Sequence record: KX231829.1
Source: Enterobacter phage Tyrion
DNA length: 41,760 bases
Direction: 5' to 3' (one strand)
Shown here: piece after piece, positions 3,967 through 37,341 of the stretch
How positions within the stretch are numbered: the first letter of the stretch is position 1
Layout: the number at the start of each line of letters is the position of its first letter
Notes under the pieces: generated by a model
Seen by the model: only the letters and a program-made list of their open reading frames with translations
Database searches by the model: none
Told to the model about the DNA's origin: nothing
Position numbers and translations under genes: made by a program

Positions 3967-4046
3967 CATTACCTCAAGGGTAATTATTGATGCAATAACT
4001 GTCAATACCCTACGCTAAATAATGCATATGTGGTTAAATTGGTAAT
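3967..4046. promoter_or_regulatory. Promoter-operator unit upstream of the 68-aa gene and portal
   Basis: Perfect palindrome ATTACC-TCAAG-GGTAAT (3967..3983), then CATATGTGGTT (4025..4035) and half-site GGTAAT (4041..4046). Same composite architecture as 7 other intergenic sites. Confidence 0.55.
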
Positions 4047-4073
4047 AATTTAATTGCGTACGGAGTCATTGTT

Positions 4074-4280
4074 ATGTGCATGGGTAGCTCTCCATCAGTG
4101 CCAGCGGCACCGGAAGTGCAGGCCGCACCGCAGGAACAGGATGCTGCTGTAGTCGATGCTCGCGACGAAGAAACCCGCCGCCGCCGCGCTGCTGCCGGTC
4201 GTAGTTCCACGCTTCTGACTGGCTCGCAGGGGGACACCTCCGCAGCCAATACCAGCGGCAAAACTCTGCTCGGTCAGTAA
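4074..4280 (+). CDS. Small low-complexity Ala/Arg-rich protein upstream of portal
   Basis: 68 aa. Its translation-initiation region ACGGAGTCATTGT(T/C)ATG is duplicated exactly at the portal start. Confidence 0.5.
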   Translation: MCMGSSPSVPAAPEVQAAPQEQDAAVVDARDEETRRRRAAAGRSSTLLTGSQGDTSAANTSGKTLLGQ

Positions 4281-4294
4281 ACGGAGTCATTGTC

Positions 4295-5965
4295 ATGGCG
4301 GAAACAACGAAAGAGCGGTTGAACAAACAGTTCGCACAGCTTGAAAGCGAGCGCCAGTCGTTCGAGCCACACTGGCGAGAGTTGAGTGATTACATCAATC
4401 CTCGTGGTTCCCGCTTCCTGACATCAGAGGCAAACCGTAACGACCGCCGAAACACGCGGATCATCGACTCAACCGGCACTATGGCGGCGCGTACTCTTGC
4501 CAGTGGCATGATGTCAGGCATCACCAGCCCTGCGCGTCCGTGGTTCCGCCTGGCGACACCTGATCCGGATATGATGGATTATGGCCCGGTCAAGTTGTGG
4601 CTGGAGACGGTACAGAACCGCATGAACGATATGTTCAACAAGTCGAATCTGTACCAGTCACTGCCTCAGCTTTACGGCAGTCTTGGCACATACAGCACCG
4701 GCGCAATGGCGGTACTGGATGACGAAGAAGACATTATCCGCACGATGCCTTTTCCGATCGGCAGTTACTACCTGGCTAACTCCCCGCGCGGAAGCGTTGA
4801 TACCTGTTTCCGTAAGTTCTCCATGACTGTGCGCCAGCTTGTGCAGGAATTTGGCCTGGACAACGTCAGCGAATCCGTGAAGGGCATGTGGGAAAGCGGC
4901 ACGTATGAGAAGTGGGTTGAAGTGATGCACTCGGTGTATCCGAACATCAACCGCGATACGGCGAAGCTGGACAGCAAGAACAAGCCGTATAAATCCGTTT
5001 ATTACGAGGTCGGCGGCGATAACGATAAGTTGCTGCGCGAATCCGGCTTCGATGAATTCCCGATCATGGCGCCACGCTGGGAAGTGAACGGTGAAGATGT
5101 CTATGGCTCATCGTGTCCTGGCATGCTGGCGCTTGGTCCGGTTAAAGCGCTGCAACTTCTCCAGAAACGCAAATCTCAGCTGATTGATAAAGCCACTAAT
5201 CCGCCGATGGTTGGGCCTACTTCTCTCAAGAATCAGCGCGTTTCACTCCTCCCTGGTGATATCACCTACATCGACCAGGTGACCGGTCAGGACGGTTTTA
5301 AACCCGCATACCTGGTAACTCCCAGCACTGGCGATTTAATAACCGACATTCAGGACACGCGCCAGACCATCAACAGCGCCTACTTCGTCGATCTGTTCAT
5401 GATGCTTCAGAACATCAATACCCGCTCAATGCCGGTGGAAGCGGTGATCGAGATGAAGGAAGAAAAGCTCCTGATGCTGGGGCCGGTACTGGAACGCCTG
5501 AACGACGAATGCCTGAACCCACTGATTGACCGTGCATTCTCGATGATGGTGCGTAAGAACATGCTGCCACCGCCGCCGGACGTGATGGAAGGTATGCCTC
5601 TGAAAGTGGAATACATCTCCGTCATGGCTCAGGCGCAGAAGTCTATCGGTCTGTCCAGTCTGGCATCAACTGTCAACTTCATCGGACAACTTGCGCAGGC
5701 CAAACCTGAAGCACTCGACAAGCTCAACGTTGACCAGGCGATCGACGCATTTGCTGATATGTCCGGCGTATCGCCGACTGTCATAGTGCCGCAGGACCAG
5801 GTTGAACAGACGCGTCAGGACCGTGCGCAGCAGCAACAGCAACAGCAGGCAATGGCAATGGCTCAGATGGCAGCGCAGGGAGCCAAGACTCTCAGTGAGA
5901 CGCAGATGAAAGATCCCAGCGCGCTCTCAGCAATGGCTCAGGCAGCAGGCAGGCAACAGCAATGA
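4295..5965 (+). CDS. Portal protein
   Basis: 556 aa, positioned after terL. Gln-rich C-terminus. Size matches epsilon15 gp4. Confidence 0.85.
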   Translation: MAETTKERLNKQFAQLESERQSFEPHWRELSDYINPRGSRFLTSEANRNDRRNTRIIDSTGTMAARTLASGMMSGITSPARPWFRLATPDPDMMDYGPVKLWLETVQNRMNDMFNKSNLYQSLPQLYGSLGTYSTGAMAVLDDEEDIIRTMPFPIGSYYLANSPRGSVDTCFRKFSMTVRQLVQEFGLDNVSESVKGMWESGTYEKWVEVMHSVYPNINRDTAKLDSKNKPYKSVYYEVGGDNDKLLRESGFDEFPIMAPRWEVNGEDVYGSSCPGMLALGPVKALQLLQKRKSQLIDKATNPPMVGPTSLKNQRVSLLPGDITYIDQVTGQDGFKPAYLVTPSTGDLITDIQDTRQTINSAYFVDLFMMLQNINTRSMPVEAVIEMKEEKLLMLGPVLERLNDECLNPLIDRAFSMMVRKNMLPPPPDVMEGMPLKVEYISVMAQAQKSIGLSSLASTVNFIGQLAQAKPEALDKLNVDQAIDAFADMSGVSPTVIVPQDQVEQTRQDRAQQQQQQQAMAMAQMAAQGAKTLSETQMKDPSALSAMAQAAGRQQQ

Positions 5966-20063: not shown

Positions 20064-20375
20064 ATGGGTTATATTGAAGCGAAGTTGAGTTTACTTGGAA
20101 GAATGCGAGTTATTGCTCTGCTGCTGAATGCAATAGTATTTCTGGGTAGTTCATGGGCTTTGTATAAAACCGGAATTTTTACAACGTCATGGTATAACGA
20201 AGGTGATGCAGTATTATGCGTACTTCTAATGCTATGTACAGCATTAAGCATCTTTGCCATCAATAACCCGATTATTCTTGATAAAACAGATGATGAATCG
20301 TCTTCGCTACTATTTTTATGGTTGAAGAGAAAAAAGCTCGAGCATCTTGAGAAAATAAAAGAACTTAAAAAATAG
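20064..20375 (+). CDS. Small two-TM membrane protein (AT-rich moron), candidate superinfection-exclusion protein
   Basis: 103 aa with two hydrophobic helices and low-GC codon usage. Sits between injection proteins and ant, where P22 has sieA. Confidence 0.55.
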   Translation: MGYIEAKLSLLGRMRVIALLLNAIVFLGSSWALYKTGIFTTSWYNEGDAVLCVLLMLCTALSIFAINNPIILDKTDDESSSLLFLWLKRKKLEHLEKIKELKK

Positions 20376-20376
20376 C

Positions 20377-20388
20377 GTGACATGTCAC
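20377..20388. repeat. Palindrome GTGACATGTCAC (copy 2)
   Basis: Perfect 12-bp palindrome between convergent genes, directly followed by the terminator hairpin ggccgctttcgcggcc. Confidence 0.8.
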
Positions 20389-20396
20389 AAAGGCCG

Positions 20397-20420
20397 CTTT
20401 CGCGGCCTTATTCTTATCAG
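20397..20420. terminator. Bidirectional Rho-independent terminator
   Basis: GGCCGC-tttc-GCGGCC followed by ttattctt on the plus strand. U-rich on the minus strand after the adjacent palindrome. Confidence 0.55.
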
Positions 20421-21130
20421 AACCCACCAGCCTGGCTGTTGATGTACTGCGCGTGCGTCTGGATGTCGCGCAGGCATTTACTGGCACCTACGATGTAGCT
20501 GATCATCGTGGTGAACTCCGCCGCCGCGCCGGATACGTCGTGGCCGTCGTCCTGCATCTGGTTCAGCAGGTTCATCAGCAGTGAGCGATCCGCCAGCCCA
20601 ACAACACCTTCCGGCGAGTGAATCATGTCGCGGTAGCCGGGTTTGAGTGGGGCGCTGTAGTTCTTCTGTTCAATCTGCATGGCCTGCATAACTGCTGATG
20701 CTGTGGCATTGGCAACCTGATCAGCAACCATCTTAATGCGGTCTTCTTGCGGGAGCGTATTTTTGATGTAACTACCGGTGCGGCGGATCTGCGGCAGCAC
20801 TTCGCCAGTTACCCATTTACGGAAACGGTAGGGAATAGTCCCAGGTGTTACTGCATCGCGGCAGCGCAGGATCAGAGTATAGAGGCCGGATTCGTTTATG
20901 ACATTAACGGTCTGACTACCTTTTACGGTGTAAGTTGAACTTACACCCTTCTCATCATCATCTAATGCTTTCAACGACATGCGGGAGTTAGTCAACCCAA
21001 GAGCTTTGCAAACGTCTGATGCAGCAAACCATGGATTACCATCAATGTTGAACATGCGAACAGGTGTGGATGATTCGAACTTAAATACTGCGTCTGGAGA
21101 TGGTTTTCTTTGAGTTGTCATAGTGATCAC
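20417..21130 (-). CDS. ant: Bro-N domain antirepressor-like protein (Ant)
   Basis: 237 aa. N-terminal Bro-N signature FNIDGNPWFAASDVCKALGL...LDDDEK. The C-terminal approximately 70 aa is paralogous to the product of 21439..21699. Confidence 0.75.
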   Translation of the reverse strand: MITMTTQRKPSPDAVFKFESSTPVRMFNIDGNPWFAASDVCKALGLTNSRMSLKALDDDEKGVSSTYTVKGSQTVNVINESGLYTLILRCRDAVTPGTIPYRFRKWVTGEVLPQIRRTGSYIKNTLPQEDRIKMVADQVANATASAVMQAMQIEQKNYSAPLKPGYRDMIHSPEGVVGLADRSLLMNLLNQMQDDGHDVSGAAAEFTTMISYIVGASKCLRDIQTHAQYINSQAGGF

Positions 21131-21392
21131 CTTTGTAGTTCCGGTTAATCACCACCGCTGAGACCAATCAGATGGTGGTGAACTGTGCAGAGTTGGTCTT
21201 ACCGGCTACAAAGGACCCGGCGCACCGTGAGGTGCCCCCACACAGCCCACCATAGAATATGGGTGCTATGCTTCACGCATAAAAAAACCGCTCGCGCGGT
21301 AATGCGCCTCTGTAGTAATCCGGGAGACCAATCCCGGCACTGGATTTTGCCAGTGCCTGATCACTATGGCACAAGAATTATGCATTGTAAAT

Positions 21393-21448
21393 TTACCTGT
21401 GAGGTAATAATAAACGGCTTCACAGGTAATTACAAACCTTATGTGGTT
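21393..21448. promoter_or_regulatory. Operator/promoter unit upstream of ant
   Basis: TTACC-TGTGA-GGTAAT (21393..21408), half-site AGGTAAT (21424..21430), ACCTTATGTGGTT (21436..21448). Confidence 0.5.
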
Positions 21449-21699
21449 TGCCGTCGTAGTTGCTCTACGCAATAATCCAGGTGCGTCTGCAGATCCTTCA
21501 TCGATAACTGTGAACTGGTGACATAGTTCACCAGCGCAGTCAGTTCTGCCAGCGGTCCATCAACGTTAAATCCGTCTTTGTCCAACTGGCGCAGCAATTT
21601 CATAAGGTGTGAGTCCTCCACCAGGGATATGACGCCTCCCGGCGTGTGTACTCTTTCAGCAAATCCATCTTCCAGCGGGTGGTGATACTGCCGTTGCAT
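21439..21699 (-). CDS. Small antirepressor-like protein (stand-alone Ant C-terminal domain paralog), SOS-box associated
   Basis: ORF 21439..21717 (TTG). Likely ATG at 21699 with RBS GGAG. Clear similarity to the Ant C-terminus (HTPGGVISLVEDSHLMKLL.. versus HSPEGVVGLADRSLLMNLL..). Confidence 0.6.
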   Translation of the reverse strand: MQRQYHHPLEDGFAERVHTPGGVISLVEDSHLMKLLRQLDKDGFNVDGPLAELTALVNYVTSSQLSMKDLQTHLDYCVEQLRRQTT

Positions 21700-21719
21700 C
21701 TCTTCATCTCCATGCAATC

Positions 21720-21739
21720 ACTGTATGCTTATACAGTAG
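21720..21739. promoter_or_regulatory. LexA (SOS) box aCTGTATGCTTATACAGta
   Basis: CTGT-N8-ACAG with AT-rich spacer, 18/20 match to TACTGTATATATATACAGTA. Lies about 20 bp upstream of the ATG of the small antirepressor-like gene. Confidence 0.65.
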
Positions 21740-21774
21740 CAAAGACTTTCTCCACTATCCAGCACAGAATGCAA

Positions 21775-21841
21775 ATTACCTTATCGGTAATAAATGTGTT
21801 GAATGTTATTTATTCGATACATATACGGTTATTCAGGTAAT
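21775..21841. promoter_or_regulatory. Operator/promoter unit between small ant-like gene and tailspike
   Basis: Perfect ATTACC-TTATC-GGTAAT (21775..21791), then GGTAATAAATGTGTT, ACATATACGGTT (21819..21830) and AGGTAAT (21835..21841). Confidence 0.55.
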
Positions 21842-21896
21842 AGAATGGATGGGACTGCATGCGCGATGGGCGCACAAGCTATCCGGAGATAATGAC

Positions 21897-24455
21897 ATGA
21901 CGGTCTCAACCGAAGTTGACCACAACGATTACACCGGGAACGGCGTCACAACGACATTCCCGTATACCTTCAGAATTTTTCAGAAGTCTGATCTGGTTGT
22001 TCAGGTTGTAGACCTGGATGAAAATATAAGCGTTCTGGTCCTTGATACGGACTACACAGTTACCGGTGCTGGTGGATACACTGGCGGCAATGTGATATTG
22101 GCTACGGCGCTTGCCAGTGGATACCAGATCTCCATTTCGCGCGAGTTACCTGTTACTCAGGAAACAGACCTTCGCAATCAGGGTAAGTTCTTCGCTGAAG
22201 TTCATGAAGACGCTTTCGATAAGCTGACTATGCTGATCCAGCAAGTAAGAAGTATGTTCAGCCTGGCGCTGCGCAAGCCTACATTCGTGGCAAATTATTA
22301 TGATGCTATGAACAACTATATTCGAAATCTGAGAGATCCTGTACGTCAGCAAGATGCAGCAACAAAAGGGTATGTTGACAGTTTGTCAGGAACAAATTTA
22401 AACAGAACCCTACGTGTTCCTGAAGCAGTAATATCTGTTTTGCCTGACATTGAAGATAGAAGAAATAAAGCGTTAAGTTTCGACTACGCCGGTGAGCCAT
22501 TGCTATTAGATCCATCAGGAAGTGGATTGTGGGGTTATGTTCTGATTGATTCATTTCAGTTAGGGGCAACAATATCCACTCGATACCAGGCATTGCGCTG
22601 GACTCTTCCGGATGGCGATGGTGAATACTATCGCTGGGATGGTGCACTTCCTAAAATCGTGCCACCTGGTTCCACTCCTGATACCGCAGGTGGCGTAGGC
22701 CCTGGTAAATGGGTTGGTGTTGGTGATGCGTCTTTACGCGGACAATTAAACAACACATTCGATGATGTCACATCATTAAGAAATTCAGAAAACCTTATCC
22801 CAGATATTCCAGTCTTGCTCGTTAATTACTATTCAGGTGTAGTTGGTGGAGGTGGGGCATTCTATGTTGATGACGCAGATACCACGTCAACAGATAACTC
22901 CGGCACTGTATTCGTAAACGCTAGCGGACAACGTATCAAGCGAGTTCTTGATGGCGTATGCCGCTGGTCAGACTTCGGAATTCTGCCAGGCATGCCGGTA
23001 GCGCCAACTAAATCGCAGTGTGAAGCAGTATGGGCGTGGGGTTTCGCAAACGGCTGTACCCGGTACGAAACCTTCCAGAAAGGGGAAATGACATTCACTT
23101 TCCCTCTGCTGTTCCAGGTGCCTGCTGACTGGACTGGCGGGGCGGTGAGCTTTATTGCTGAGGGTCTGCACAAATTCGCATACGATTTCCGTAATGGCGC
23201 CACTGATGATGTGGTAGAGATCATCCTGAAACTTGAAGACCTGTCAGGGAACACACCCATCCATACTATTTATAATTTCGATAACGTTGGGATGGGGCGG
23301 TTCCCTGGTAAGAGCATCCGATACACCGCTCTACGCCACACGAACGCAAAAAACTCAATGATCAAGGTTACCGGGAAGAACAACTACGGATATGCCCTGT
23401 TCATAGGCGGTAGTGATAACAGCATCGTGTACAATTCAACGTTTTATAACTGCGATGGACAATTGCTTGTAACGTCACCGGGAGGAGCTTACGACAACTT
23501 CGGTGATGCGATTTATGTTGGCGCTAAAAATGTGTCTATCCAGAGTCCTGTCATTGAAACAACACAGGGTGGTAGAGCTGGTATCGTATTCGAAGGGACA
23601 AGTGTTGATCGTGTTGGTGGTGAGGTAACAAACTGCTTCATTAAGGGATATGATCGCGGTATTCACATTGAAACCATTGGCTACAGAATGGACGCAGTTA
23701 ATATTACTGGAGGCAGGATACAGGATTGTAATACAAGCATATTGGCATTTAATGGAGTAGCCGCCGATATGGGAAGTGATATGTCTGTTATTGTCAAGGG
23801 ATTAACATCGCGGCTTGATAGCACAATTTCAGGTCATGCTAATCCAACAGGATTTACTCTTGGACACTTTATGGCTTCAGGAATAAACATGCAGATCACC
23901 ACTGAGGGTTGCTCATGGCAGGCGCAACTTAACAATATAACTATTGTTGGTGGTGGAAAATGGATTAGTAGCGGAGACAGGATGTTTGTTAATTCAGGAG
24001 GAATAGCAGCGCCATACGCAAGAAGTATAGAGATAAATAATATGTATGCCCCCGCAAACAGAAACACATTGTCATCATCAGGTAATGTTATATTCACAAA
24101 CTCATTTTGGGGTGGCGATATAGCGGTAACTGGCGGAAATAAGAGCGTGATAGATAATATAGAGATGACAAGACTCACATTCCCAAATTGCGGGAGAATT
24201 AGTCTTGTTGGATCCAATAGCGCCATTGTGAGAAACATAATATTCCAGTTCCCTGATACGTGGGCAATTGACAACACCCAAACTTTGCAGGTGCCTGTAT
24301 GTCCTATTATTGAAAATATCCATGTAAATAGCACGCCAACAGGAACGGCAACACTGCAGAGGAATGCAGAGAACACAGGTGCATCAGCAAACAGATACAG
24401 AAGGGCCATGCCATCATATATTTCAAATGGCACGACATTTACAACAATACCCTAA
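21897..24455 (+). CDS. Tailspike: T7 gp17-like N-terminal adaptor domain plus parallel beta-helix depolymerase-like domain
   Basis: ORF 21849..24455. Likely start MTVSTEV at 21897 with RBS GGAGATAA. N-term YTGNGVTTTFPYTFRIF..DLVVQVVDLD matches the T7 tail-fibre N-terminal domain pattern. The C-terminal two-thirds is AT-rich with beta-helix-like repeats. Confidence 0.85.
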   Translation: MTVSTEVDHNDYTGNGVTTTFPYTFRIFQKSDLVVQVVDLDENISVLVLDTDYTVTGAGGYTGGNVILATALASGYQISISRELPVTQETDLRNQGKFFAEVHEDAFDKLTMLIQQVRSMFSLALRKPTFVANYYDAMNNYIRNLRDPVRQQDAATKGYVDSLSGTNLNRTLRVPEAVISVLPDIEDRRNKALSFDYAGEPLLLDPSGSGLWGYVLIDSFQLGATISTRYQALRWTLPDGDGEYYRWDGALPKIVPPGSTPDTAGGVGPGKWVGVGDASLRGQLNNTFDDVTSLRNSENLIPDIPVLLVNYYSGVVGGGGAFYVDDADTTSTDNSGTVFVNASGQRIKRVLDGVCRWSDFGILPGMPVAPTKSQCEAVWAWGFANGCTRYETFQKGEMTFTFPLLFQVPADWTGGAVSFIAEGLHKFAYDFRNGATDDVVEIILKLEDLSGNTPIHTIYNFDNVGMGRFPGKSIRYTALRHTNAKNSMIKVTGKNNYGYALFIGGSDNSIVYNSTFYNCDGQLLVTSPGGAYDNFGDAIYVGAKNVSIQSPVIETTQGGRAGIVFEGTSVDRVGGEVTNCFIKGYDRGIHIETIGYRMDAVNITGGRIQDCNTSILAFNGVAADMGSDMSVIVKGLTSRLDSTISGHANPTGFTLGHFMASGINMQITTEGCSWQAQLNNITIVGGGKWISSGDRMFVNSGGIAAPYARSIEINNMYAPANRNTLSSSGNVIFTNSFWGGDIAVTGGNKSVIDNIEMTRLTFPNCGRISLVGSNSAIVRNIIFQFPDTWAIDNTQTLQVPVCPIIENIHVNSTPTGTATLQRNAENTGASANRYRRAMPSYISNGTTFTTIP

Positions 24456-26407: not shown

Positions 26408-26465
26408 TCACCTTATGGGTAATTTTGATAGGAGTAATCTCAGGTAATTATAACCATATATGGTT
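26408..26465. promoter_or_regulatory. Divergent promoter/operator region (oac leftward, lysis rightward)
   Basis: TCACC-TTATG-GGTAAT (26408..26423). Sigma70-like TTGATA (26425..26430) - 17 bp - TTATAA rightward. AGGTAAT (26442..26448), ACCATATATGGTT (26453..26465). On the minus strand CCATATATGGT is directly followed by a perfect TATAAT pointing toward oac. Confidence 0.55.
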
Positions 26466-34060: not shown

Positions 34061-34176
34061 GGGCTACCTTGTTGGTAAACGCCCATTTGATGCCTTCCTG
34101 CAGCGTGCGAAACTTCCAGCTCATCAGCCCGCAAGCTGTAACGCAGTACCAACCGTTAATGATTTTCCACTGCATG

Positions 34177-34283
34177 ATTTATTACCTCGGTTTGTTACCG
34201 TTGAGGTAATAATTATCCATATATGGTTTGCAGTCAATAGATATGAGTGTAAAAAATTACCTGTGGGGTAATTGTCAGGTAAT
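34177..34283. promoter_or_regulatory. OL-like operator/promoter cluster
   Basis: TTACCTCGG..CCGTTGAGGTAAT, then GGTAAT-aattat-CCATATATGG (34205..34226). Perfect ATTACC-TGTGG-GGTAAT (34256..34272), AGGTAAT (34277..34283). Leftward sigma70-like TTGACT-17-AATTAT with CCATATATGG in the spacer. Confidence 0.55.
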
Positions 34284-34294
34284 CTTAAAGGCAA

Positions 34295-34317
34295 TAAAAA
34301 AGCCGCTCATTGGCGGC
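34295..34317 (-). terminator. Terminator after repressor gene
   Basis: GCCGC-tcattg-GCGGC. On the minus strand it is followed by UUUUUUAUU. Confidence 0.55.
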
Positions 34318-34339
34318 TTAGTTATTGATTATTTGAATA

Positions 34340-34924
34340 TTATTCTGTTGTTTTTTTATTCTGACTGATAACGAATTCTATGTAGCTTTCTATCTTCTTT
34401 TTTTCTACGTCAGGTAACAATCCGTAACTTGGTCGGTCATATCTGATAGCTTCCGGATCATGAGGATGAATCAGCAATTCATAACCATGTCGACCGAACG
34501 CGGAGGCGATAGATTCGAGAGTTGAGATTGATACACTGACTTCGTTGTTCAGCATTCTGCTGACAGTGTTCTGAGAAATTCCGCTGGCGCGCTCGATCTT
34601 ACCTTGTGATGTCAGGTTATCGCTTTCTCTCATCCAGCGTTCAAGGTTATGGGCAGCAATGATACCAATATCAGTTGGTCCTACAGGTACAAAGCTATCA
34701 AGAGTCAGAGATCTGTCTATGTCCAGCCAGTTACGCGGTTTGTTTGCTGCTGCCTCAATCTTACGTGCAACCTGATCACCGATTATTTTCTTTCCAAGAA
34801 CCCAACGATTAACCAGGTTAGCCTGCGTGTTCATCCTTTCTGCAAGACGCGTCTGCACGCCGTTAAATTCGCGGTCTATTAGATCCTTGAGATTTTGTCT
34901 GCGTACGTCCTGGATACTTTTCAT
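34340..34924 (-). CDS. Prophage repressor, tandem HTH_XRE domains, no S24 peptidase domain
   Basis: 194 aa with two HTH regions (about 1-65 and about 105-160). No Ser/Lys autocleavage module. Divergent from the cro-like gene. Confidence 0.75.
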   Translation of the reverse strand: MKSIQDVRRQNLKDLIDREFNGVQTRLAERMNTQANLVNRWVLGKKIIGDQVARKIEAAANKPRNWLDIDRSLTLDSFVPVGPTDIGIIAAHNLERWMRESDNLTSQGKIERASGISQNTVSRMLNNEVSVSISTLESIASAFGRHGYELLIHPHDPEAIRYDRPSYGLLPDVEKKKIESYIEFVISQNKKTTE

Positions 34925-34956
34925 GCTCTTGAAAATAAGCTCTTAAGTGAATGAGT

Positions 34957-35041
34957 AGGTAATTCAATTAAAAGCGATATTACCCCACAGGTAAATGCAC
35001 CCCACAGGTAACTGAACTTGATTTTTGTTACCTAATCGGTG
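34957..35041. promoter_or_regulatory. OR-like operator cluster (PRM/PR)
   Basis: AGGTAAT (34957), ATTACC-CCACA-GGTAA (34978..34993), GCACC-CCACA-GGTAA (34996..35010), TTACC-TAATC-GGTGA (35027..35041) overlapping a rightward TTGATT (35017..35022)-17-GAGTAT promoter. Confidence 0.6.
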
Positions 35042-35078
35042 AGTATTTATTATCTGACATAAATATCAGGCAATAGCT

Positions 35079-35373: not shown

Positions 35374-35396
35374 AGGTAATTATTATCCATATATGG
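35374..35396. promoter_or_regulatory. Promoter/operator unit upstream of 35461 operon
   Basis: AGGTAAT-tat-TATCCATATATGGTT. The same 25-bp arrangement occurs at 26442 and 34205. Confidence 0.5.
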
Positions 35397-35460
35397 TTGA
35401 TCTTTTTTCTTCTCTGATTAAAAATTGTCGTAATCCCAACACTAATACTCAGGGTTAAGC

Positions 35461-37263: not shown

Positions 37264-37341
37264 ATTACCCAGTGGGTAATAAAATGTGTTCACAAGTATT
37301 GATTTCGAACCGTATATGGATTTTAATTACCTAAGAGGTAA
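37264..37341. promoter_or_regulatory. Promoter with flanking operators upstream of RuvC-like operon
   Basis: Perfect ATTACC-CAGTG-GGTAAT (37264..37280). TTGATT (37299..37304) - 17 bp spacer containing CCGTATATGG (37310..37319) - TTTAAT (37322..37327). Perfect TTACC-TAAGA-GGTAA (37327..37341) at the predicted start site. Confidence 0.6.

Follow-up and report, generated by a model that had tools for sequence, protein, structure and literature searches.

A predicted SPC32H-type SOS switch with a second, RNA-controlled antirepressor in Enterobacter phage Tyrion

How a prophage whose repressor lacks a self-cleavage module could respond to DNA damage in its host is the question raised by the antirepressor region of Enterobacter phage Tyrion. 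We analysed the whole of sequence record KX231829.1 [41,760 nucleotides (nt), hereafter the window]. Two neighbouring minus-strand genes are at issue, ant, which encodes a small antirepressor, and a larger gene for a protein with a Bro-N domain, together with the repressor gene rep. A preliminary description of this DNA had predicted that LexA controls the small gene. In our judgment, the locus is very likely best explained by a switch of the type known from Salmonella phage SPC32H, with a LexA-gated Ant, to which a second antirepressor, the Bro-N protein, has been added under the control of RNAs. Coordinates are collected in Table 1.

Ant, Rep and the LexA box

The product of ant aligns over 100% of its length with the product of the SPC32H/SPC32N gene annotated as "ant: anti-repressor protein." It also matches chain 5D50_E of the Protein Data Bank (PDB), an "Anti-repressor protein" that is likewise 86 amino acids (aa) long (E 7e−48), and phrog_450 (E 3e−45). 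This length follows from the ATG start at 21699; the preliminary description had allowed 86 to 92 aa, but the longer version begins at a TTG that is not used by homologues. A family for the small Ant was not found in Pfam or NCBIfam, and a sub-threshold DUF724 match was discarded as noise. In the phage collection, Ant homologues occur in 33 records and Rep homologues in 34, essentially the same phages, and the identical Ant protein is present on many gut-metagenome and enterobacterial contigs. The annotation has a gap here: phrog_450, the family of SPC32H Ant, is labelled "unknown function," nearly all of its database members are named "hypothetical protein," and most records call the small gene the same, although its orthologue is a structurally solved antirepressor.

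SPC32H Ant and Rep were crystallised together (PDB 5D50; 5D4Z is also listed for the system, whose primary papers are Kim and Ryu 2013, J Virol 87:11775, and Kim et al. 2016, PNAS 113:E2480). Residues 1 to 191 of the window's Rep match the "Repressor" chain 5D50_A (E 7e−44). Identity is 45% to SPC32H Rep (98% of the length) and 78% to the Rep of phage phiV10. Pfam places an N-terminal helix-turn-helix (HTH) region at residues 21 to 61 and HTH_3 at 97 to 147; only HTH families were returned for Rep, with no Peptidase_S24 match. The earlier statement that the repressor has two HTH domains and no S24 autocleavage module is thus borne out.

Upstream of ant lies the candidate SOS box, TACTGTATAAGCATACAGTG when read on the minus strand. 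It had been described as a near-consensus LexA box at 21720 to 21739, about 20 base pairs (bp) upstream of the small gene's ATG. We place it at 21719 to 21738 and measure 21 nt between its edge and the ATG, with a GGAG Shine-Dalgarno sequence in between; the description otherwise holds. The core of the box, CTGTATGCTTATACAG at 21721 to 21736, is the sole CTGT-N8-ACAG in the 41.8-kb window, and the Bro-N gene has no LexA box. By itself, this motif is not significant, since 0.62 occurrences were expected and at least one was seen in 40 of 100 shuffles. With ~0.6 expected per window, the box could be imagined to be a chance match or a relic, prophage induction proceeding otherwise, for example through an unrecognised cleavage of Rep. 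We consider this highly improbable: the box is identical to the Escherichia coli MG1655 recA operator TACTGTATGAGCATACAGTA at 18 of 20 positions, its position is kept in 13 of 13 related loci while the flanking bases vary, and Pfam finds no S24 domain in Rep. The 13 loci, all of those fetched, come from phages and prophages of Salmonella, Escherichia, Enterobacter and Klebsiella; in each of them the box is found 20 to 37 nt upstream of the ant ATG, and in three ATGT replaces CTGT in its left half. It is therefore the match to recA and the constant position that give the box its weight, not the CTGT-N8-ACAG motif alone.

To describe the promoter, we aligned the region upstream of ant from eight phages (the window, SPC32H, epsilon15, phiV10, TL-2011b, one Enterobacter phage and two Klebsiella phages). 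Four blocks were conserved, a TTACC-N5-GGTAA palindrome, CTGGATAG, TGnTAC/TnT and the SOS box, and the spacing of the second and third was constant in all eight phages. By inspection, these blocks point to a probable ant promoter whose extended −10 element and start site would lie under the LexA box. Two other assignments were dropped because the matching −10 hexamers were poor and unconserved; one used TTGCAT/TTTGCA beside the operator as the −35 element, and the other was a recA-like layout with the LexA box within the spacer.

The TTACC-N5-GGTAA palindrome is strongly overrepresented, with nine exact and six one-mismatch sites in the window versus 0.54 expected, and none of 100 shuffles reached 15. 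The sites (67–99, 3969, 21393–21407, 21776, 34064–34271, 34980–35042 and 37265–37341) cluster around rep and in front of operons. In the GenBank record of epsilon15, ATTACCTTACAGGTAAT upstream of gp19, the ant orthologue, is annotated as a protein_bind feature, "repressor; lysogeny," and the record gives further repressor sites in front of the portal operon and the RuvC-like gene, left of the repressor gene and at the start of the genome. Since the sites in the window are distributed in the same way, TTACC-N5-GGTAA is presumed, by this annotation and by inference, to be the Rep operator. Both ant-like genes had been said to be flanked by this palindrome, and exact sites are indeed found at 21393 to 21407 and 21776 to 21790.

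A second palindrome, AACCATATATGGTT, was seen at 26452–26465, 34215–34228, 35385–35398 and 37308–37321, with weaker copies at 21819–21830, 21435–21448 and 4024–4035. A search with CCATATATGGTT allowing up to two mismatches gave 15 matches versus 2.8 expected. The palindrome is located ~20 or ~43 bp from most TTACC-N5-GGTAA operators and could be a promoter element or be bound by the Cro-like protein or by the second HTH region of Rep.

The arrangement closely follows that of SPC32H. The two phages share an Ant of the same length, a Rep with two HTH regions, the position of the SOS box, the upstream TTACC-N5-GGTAA site and the place of the module between the tail gene and the tailspike; the Rep proteins, as given above, are much less alike. 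Kim and Ryu (2013) reportedly found that SPC32H Rep stays uncleaved on SOS induction and that, once the LexA box carries a point mutation, Ant is made constitutively and the phage grows lytically, and the SPC32H authors are said to call their Ant structurally distinct. In several Salmonella prophages including SPC32H, self-cleavage of LexA leads to production of an antirepressor, which inhibits the lytic repressor through direct protein-protein binding (reviewed in PMC7380047). The form of SPC32H Rep that binds DNA is a tetramer, which is broken when a tetramer of Ant binds two Rep dimers (PMC9638917), the C-terminal tetramerisation domain of Rep being also its Ant-binding domain (PMC9986798).

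Because Ant, Rep and the LexA box are all orthologous to parts of the SPC32H system, the predicted circuit is, as judged by homology, the published SPC32H circuit with its solved complex structure, and the window carries an orthologous version of it rather than a new circuit. The central proposal of the preliminary description, SOS induction through a LexA-repressed antirepressor and a noncleavable repressor, is consistent with the presence of all three SPC32H parts in the same order. The description had likened the mechanism to the Gifsy/Fels type, and here only the logic stands. Like the window, Gifsy-1/-3 (GfoA/GfhA) and 186/Fels-2 (Tum) combine a noncleavable repressor with a small LexA-controlled antirepressor gene outside the immunity region (PMC3121763, PMC7380047), but these systems are found in lambdoid siphoviruses or P2-like myoviruses, whereas the window is epsilon15-like and its Ant belongs to the SPC32H family. 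Pfam, NCBIfam and PHROG scans pointed to no GfoA, Tum or GfoR family, a direct sequence comparison not having been made.

In a lysogen, Rep would occupy the TTACC-N5-GGTAA operators ahead of phage promoters, and host LexA would occupy the recA-like box over the −10 element and start site of ant. Upon DNA damage, removal of LexA would allow the 86-aa Ant to be made, and Ant would bind Rep and strip it from DNA, leading to prophage induction. The binding of LexA to the box, of Ant to Rep and of Rep to the palindromes is here carried over from characterised relatives, as is the direction of the RNA effects considered below.

The sequence divergence between the partners is uneven. Relative to SPC32H, Ant has kept 86% identity but Rep only 45%, and the operator half-sites TTACC/GGTAA are unchanged. 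A conserved surface is thus suggested as the target of Ant, which could act across heteroimmune relatives, as in the crosstalk of Gifsy prophages.

An isrK/C4 cassette and the second antirepressor

The 317 nt that separate the two antirepressor genes (21122–21438) contain RNA genes and not repressor open reading frames (ORFs). The predicted isrK promoter ends 7 nt before isrK, and its predicted start is position 1 of the Rfam isrK match (21356). A distant locus (L015) shows a like layout, with the operator, 1 nt and then TTTACA. The isrK RNA ends in an intrinsic terminator (21281–21300) and contains the predicted decoy sites a1 (21325–21331) and b1 (21307–21315). It is followed by a C4-family RNA with the loop element b′, CCUUUGUAG (21206–21214), and the element a′, AGACCAA (21193–21199). 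The loop is complementary to CUACAAAGG at 21130 to 21138, the b2 site of the leader, which overlaps the Bro-N gene Shine-Dalgarno sequence AAAGGUGA (in DNA letters AAAGGTGA, 21127–21134), and to CUACAGAGG inside isrK. The second element is complementary to UUGGUCU, which is present in the leader (21161–21167) and in isrK (21325–21331). These pairings were obtained by searching for maximal complementary stretches, as whole-RNA duplex folding gave uninformative long duplexes. The read-through transcript folds more stably than its shuffles (z = −3.96), with isrK paired with the C4 elements. C4 is separated from the ATG at 21121 by a 49-nt leader that contains no ORF and thus no counterpart of icd or orf45.

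The three pairing partners, in C4, isrK and the leader, co-vary: across seven phage loci, four b and three a specificities were distinguished (Table 1). Presence of the RNAs also follows presence of the second antirepressor, isrK and C4 being found in nine of nine loci that have it and in zero of five that do not. In SPC32H, epsilon15, BUCT554, BUCT711 and one metagenomic relative, ant is followed directly by a terminator, without isrK and C4. Since the hairpin that follows ant in SPC32H is the one that follows the Bro-N gene in the window, the window has, on this comparison, an insertion of ~1 kb (21438 to 20417) that separates the ant stop codon from this terminator. The Bro-N antirepressor appears to be controlled by the isrK and C4 RNAs and by an operator-flanked promoter, not by LexA, a layer that the preliminary description overlooked.

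ORFs are called across isrK/C4 in several records, and mechanically predicted ORFs of the window at 21185 to 21475 (plus strand, 96 aa) and 21266 to 21472 (minus strand, 68 aa) overlap them. In L015, the call for a 319-aa Rha::Ant protein (4001–4960) begins inside isrK, and in the ZX5 record a feature named "ash family protein" underlies the Bro-N protein match.

According to the proposed scheme, the cassette promoter, which abuts a Rep-type operator, would drive isrK up to its terminator, and read-through would yield C4. C4 would pair with two sites in the leader, and because one of them, b2, covers the Shine-Dalgarno sequence, it should block translation of the Bro-N protein. The isrK RNA, with copies of both target sites, would act as a decoy that relieves this block.

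The same layout could be read as a single LexA-controlled operon, in which the Bro-N protein would be a second SOS output, as the preliminary description implied, and the RNAs would only damp leakage. The cassette does lie between the stop codon of ant and the hairpin that in SPC32H comes directly after this gene, and no terminator-like site was seen between the ant stop codon and the isrK promoter; only the isrK terminator and the hairpin at 20390 to 20409 were detected. We nevertheless regard such an operon as somewhat unlikely. The cassette has a good promoter and an operator of its own, the isrK terminator would stop most of the read-through, and the C4 produced along with that transcript would keep the Shine-Dalgarno sequence blocked. 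Moreover, the cassette is absent from SPC32H and epsilon15, and SOS induction, which has been reported for SPC32H, therefore does not require it.

The second antirepressor is a composite protein. Its Bro-N domain (PF02498) spans residues 24 to 113 (E 3.6e−19). The small Ant aligns with its residues 155 to 233 (38% identity over 79 aa, E 1e−21), as expected from the earlier claim that the small gene is paralogous to the C terminus of the Bro-N antirepressor, and the C-domain itself matches 5D50_E (E 6e−14). The gene had been placed at 20417 to 21130; the gene stands, but its start is likely the ATG at 21121 (234 aa) rather than the GTG at 21130. A full-length orthologue with 73% identity is ORF4 of E. 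coli phage vB_EcoP_ZX5. Overexpression of ORF4 decreased the prophage titre from 1e9 to 1e6 (~1000-fold) and repressor mRNA by 75%, favouring the lytic cycle (Li et al. 2022, PMC9782041). That paper makes no mention of LexA, SPC32H, the small Ant, isrK/C4 or homology of the ORF4 C-domain to SPC32H Ant.

An exhaustive HMMER search returned only 43 representatives of the Ant domain family. The domain occurs either as stand-alone proteins of ~86 to 95 aa or at the C terminus behind Bro-N, AntA or Rha N-domains, and the AntA and Rha versions occupy the same slot behind the same operator-promoter-isrK-C4 leader. Judged from these sequences, the RNA control and the Ant-like domain are the constant parts and the N-domain is exchangeable, which supports the C-domain as the working, repressor-directed module. 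It is reasonable to take the shared C-domain for the repressor-binding module, since the whole 86-aa SPC32H Ant is that module.

Alternatively, the Bro-N protein may not act on the resident Rep at all: its C-domain would only oligomerise, with the whole protein acting as a DNA-binding regulator or as an anti-immunity factor directed against other prophages or host functions. Bro-N is a presumed DNA-binding domain (PMC9782041, PMC7313666), SPC32H Ant is itself a tetramer (PMC9638917), and the C-domains form a clade of their own, with 54 to 78% identity among themselves and 36 to 44% to the small Ants; in addition, the phiV10 copy is frameshifted in the C-domain, which would make the domain dispensable there. 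This alternative appears unlikely to us given that the Ant-like domain is kept while the N-domain in the same slot is swapped among Bro-N, AntA and Rha, that all examples were found in phages of this Rep/Ant type and that overexpression of ZX5 ORF4 cut both lysogeny and rep transcripts (PMC9782041).

The phiV10 gene (L003, 3065–3750) is annotated as a 194-aa protein plus a 29-aa ORF as a result of the frameshift. Unless this record contains a sequencing error, the second antirepressor of phiV10 would be inactive.

Phage type and comparison with other antirepressor modules

Across positions 20300 to 21900, phiV10, ZX5 and related Escherichia phages share 77 to 78% nucleotide identity with the window, and complete E. 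coli genomes reach only ~80% in the region, so that none of the sequenced complete genomes of that species is the host of this exact phage. The gene order is an 824-aa tail protein, a small membrane protein, the leftward small gene, a rightward tailspike and a leftward O-antigen acetyltransferase (oac). The order of tail gene, ant, tailspike and oac is identical in SPC32H and epsilon15, both Uetakevirus; therefore, by gene order, the window is an epsilon15/phiV10-like (Uetakevirus) temperate phage and not a P22-like one.

Table 1. Elements of the antirepressor region and of the rep region in the window, with the pairing sets of the related loci
Feature	Coordinates	Strand	Details and basis
Bidirectional intrinsic terminator	20390..20409	.	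Closes the converging tail operon and ant cassette; terminator scan
Second antirepressor, 234 aa, Bro-N plus SPC32H-Ant-like C-domain (residues ~150–232)	20417..21121	-	Pfam, Ant alignment, phrog_130 and phrog_450
Leader of Bro-N antirepressor mRNA	21122..21170	-	a2 TTGGTCT (21161–21167); b2 CTACAAAGG (21130–21138)
C4-family antisense RNA	21171..21257	-	Rfam RF01695, 73.3 bits versus gathering score 45, full model
isrK-family small RNA (sRNA)	21281..21356	-	Rfam RF01394, 79.9 bits versus gathering score 50, full model
isrK promoter (predicted)	21363..21391	-	−35 TTTACA, 17-nt spacer, TG-extended −10 CATAGT; scan, 9/12 matches with TG
Rep-type operator TTACCTGTGAGGTAA, abutting isrK promoter −35	21393..21407	.	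Exact palindrome
ant, 86-aa small antirepressor, SPC32H Ant orthologue	21439..21699	-	86% identity, 5D50_E, phrog_450
LexA (SOS) box TACTGTATAAGCATACAGTG, minus-strand reading	21719..21738	.	recA-box match and positional conservation
Probable ant promoter	21733..21761	-	−35 TGGATA (21756–21761), 17-nt spacer, extended −10 TGC-TACTGT (21733–21741)
Rep-type operator TTACCTTATCGGTAA upstream of ant promoter, ant/tailspike divergent region	21776..21790	.	Exact palindrome; conserved in 8 phages
TTACC-N5-GGTAA cluster flanking rep on both sides	34064..35042	.	Sites 34064, 34195, 34257, 34980, 35028
rep, 194-aa repressor, SPC32H Rep orthologue	34340..34924	-	Pfam HTH_3 and others; 5D50_A
b sets (7 loci)			CCTTTGTAG/CTACAGAGG/CTACAAAGG; CCTTTTAG/CTAAAAGG/CTAAAAGG; CCGTTTAG/CTAAACGG/CTAAGCGG; CCACTTAG/CTAAGTGG/CTAAGTGG
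a sets (7 loci)			AGACCAA/TTGGTCT; ACGCCAA/TTGGCGT; GTGCAAA/TTTGCAC

The immI region of P22 (mnt-arc-ant, with the sar RNA) is an antirepressor module located just upstream of the tailspike gene and controlled by an antisense RNA. The module of the window is similarly placed beside the tailspike gene and is predicted to be under antisense-RNA control, and the preliminary description had equated its site with P22 immI. The position is right, but mnt, arc and a P22-type ant are missing. When both antirepressors were scanned with Pfam, Bro-N was found in the large one and nothing in the small one, with no P22_AR_N, P22_AR_C or KilAC. Membership in P22 immI was ruled out given the lack of mnt/arc and of P22-type Ant domains and the epsilon15-like virion type. 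P22 Ant is dispensable for SOS induction (PMC7380047), whereas the SPC32H-type small Ant is needed.

The RNA-controlled part resembles the immI (c4-icd-ant) region of P1/P7, in which a C4 antisense RNA precedes the antirepressor gene on the same strand. According to the summary of Citron and Schuster (1990) given in PMC7313666, c4 is cut from the same transcript, and its a′ and b′ elements base-pair with complementary sites ahead of the antirepressor gene. As in P1/P7, targets of a′ and b′ lie on both sides of C4, the downstream b2 being at the ribosome-binding site, and the specificities co-vary as in P1/P7 heteroimmunity, with a presumed operator of the primary repressor at the promoter. Unlike P1, the window has no icd-like upstream ORF, and b2 covers the Shine-Dalgarno sequence of the antirepressor gene itself; the Bro-N antirepressor is unrelated to P1 Ant, and an isrK with a terminator precedes C4.

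In Gifsy-1, the isrK-orf45 (STnc1160)-anrP region produces, from the isrK promoter, an sRNA with a leaky terminator; the antirepressor-like mRNA made by read-through is translationally silent and is acted on in trans by the short IsrK (Hershko-Shalev et al. 2016, PMC4825925). A processed CI/C4-like RNA is present downstream of isrK (PMC4825925). The window shares with Gifsy-1 an isrK-family RNA that has a promoter and an intrinsic terminator of its own and precedes an antirepressor-like gene; unlike in the window, the output in Gifsy-1 is the antiterminator AntQ. The APSE phages of Hamiltonella also have isrK, c4 and an adjacent Bro-N gene, and a′ and b′ of c4 match the region upstream of the latter (PMC7313666). 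Unlike the window, APSE is P22-like, and no SPC32H-type Ant domain or LexA-controlled partner has been reported there.

Several other features were also recorded. A small membrane protein gene (20064–20375, plus strand) between the tail gene and the terminator encodes 103 aa in the window, and its equivalents have ~46 aa in SPC32H and phiV10 and 64 aa in epsilon15. Pfam gave zero matches for the 103-aa protein, which could have a superinfection-exclusion type of function. A hot spot for cargo genes lies between ant and the gene for the 824-aa tail protein; downstream of the second antirepressor gene, relatives (loci L010, L013, L014 and L015) have added genes with SocA_Panacea, DUF2335 or Rap1a domains, in addition to unannotated ORFs. 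Between the terminase and portal regions, Rfam matched an int-alpA RNA at 2605 to 2669 on the minus strand (44 bits versus a gathering score of 35.8).

Two antirepressors and their inputs

Several points weigh against an SPC32H-type switch with a separately controlled second antirepressor. For this phage, the evidence is sequence alone. Since Rep is only 45% identical to SPC32H Rep, we infer the recognition of Rep by Ant, although Ant itself is 86% identical. The consensus promoter scan called no ant promoter, and the hexamers were assigned by eye. The operator at 21776 to 21790 is centred ~57 bp upstream of the inferred ant start and may serve the divergent tailspike promoter or DNA looping, not the repression of ant. 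The terminator scan found none from the ant stop codon (21439) up to the isrK promoter; transcription set off by SOS could thus run on into isrK-C4-BroN, and the two inputs may be coupled. Lastly, IsrK of Gifsy-1 works through the upstream ORF orf45 and translational coupling, and the window has no such ORF.

With these points in mind, we tentatively propose a more general scheme, which we consider possible but somewhat short of probable. Cassette-bearing Uetakevirus-type prophages would use two paralogous antirepressors built on one Rep-binding domain and switched by separate inputs, the small Ant by SOS/LexA and the N-domain::Ant proteins (Bro-N, AntA or Rha) by an IsrK/C4 switch, which would also constitute a second, RNA-encoded immunity specificity. 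In the literature, we did not find described the combination of two paralogous antirepressors of which one is LexA-gated and the other is IsrK/C4-gated with co-varying RNA specificities. The RNA-controlled second antirepressor also belongs to known kinds of control; separate inputs for two paralogues would be the one modestly new point, an extension that does not overturn current understanding.

If the scheme is true, otherwise homoimmune phages, with near-identical Rep but belonging to at least four b and three a classes, could differ in whether the antirepressor of a superinfecting genome is switched on. The phiV10-like prophages, which include phages of O157 and of other E. coli pathogens as well as relatives in Klebsiella and Salmonella, would probably have one SOS route and one RNA-gated route to induction. 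This would bear on their spontaneous induction, on superinfection immunity and on the crosstalk of co-resident prophages.

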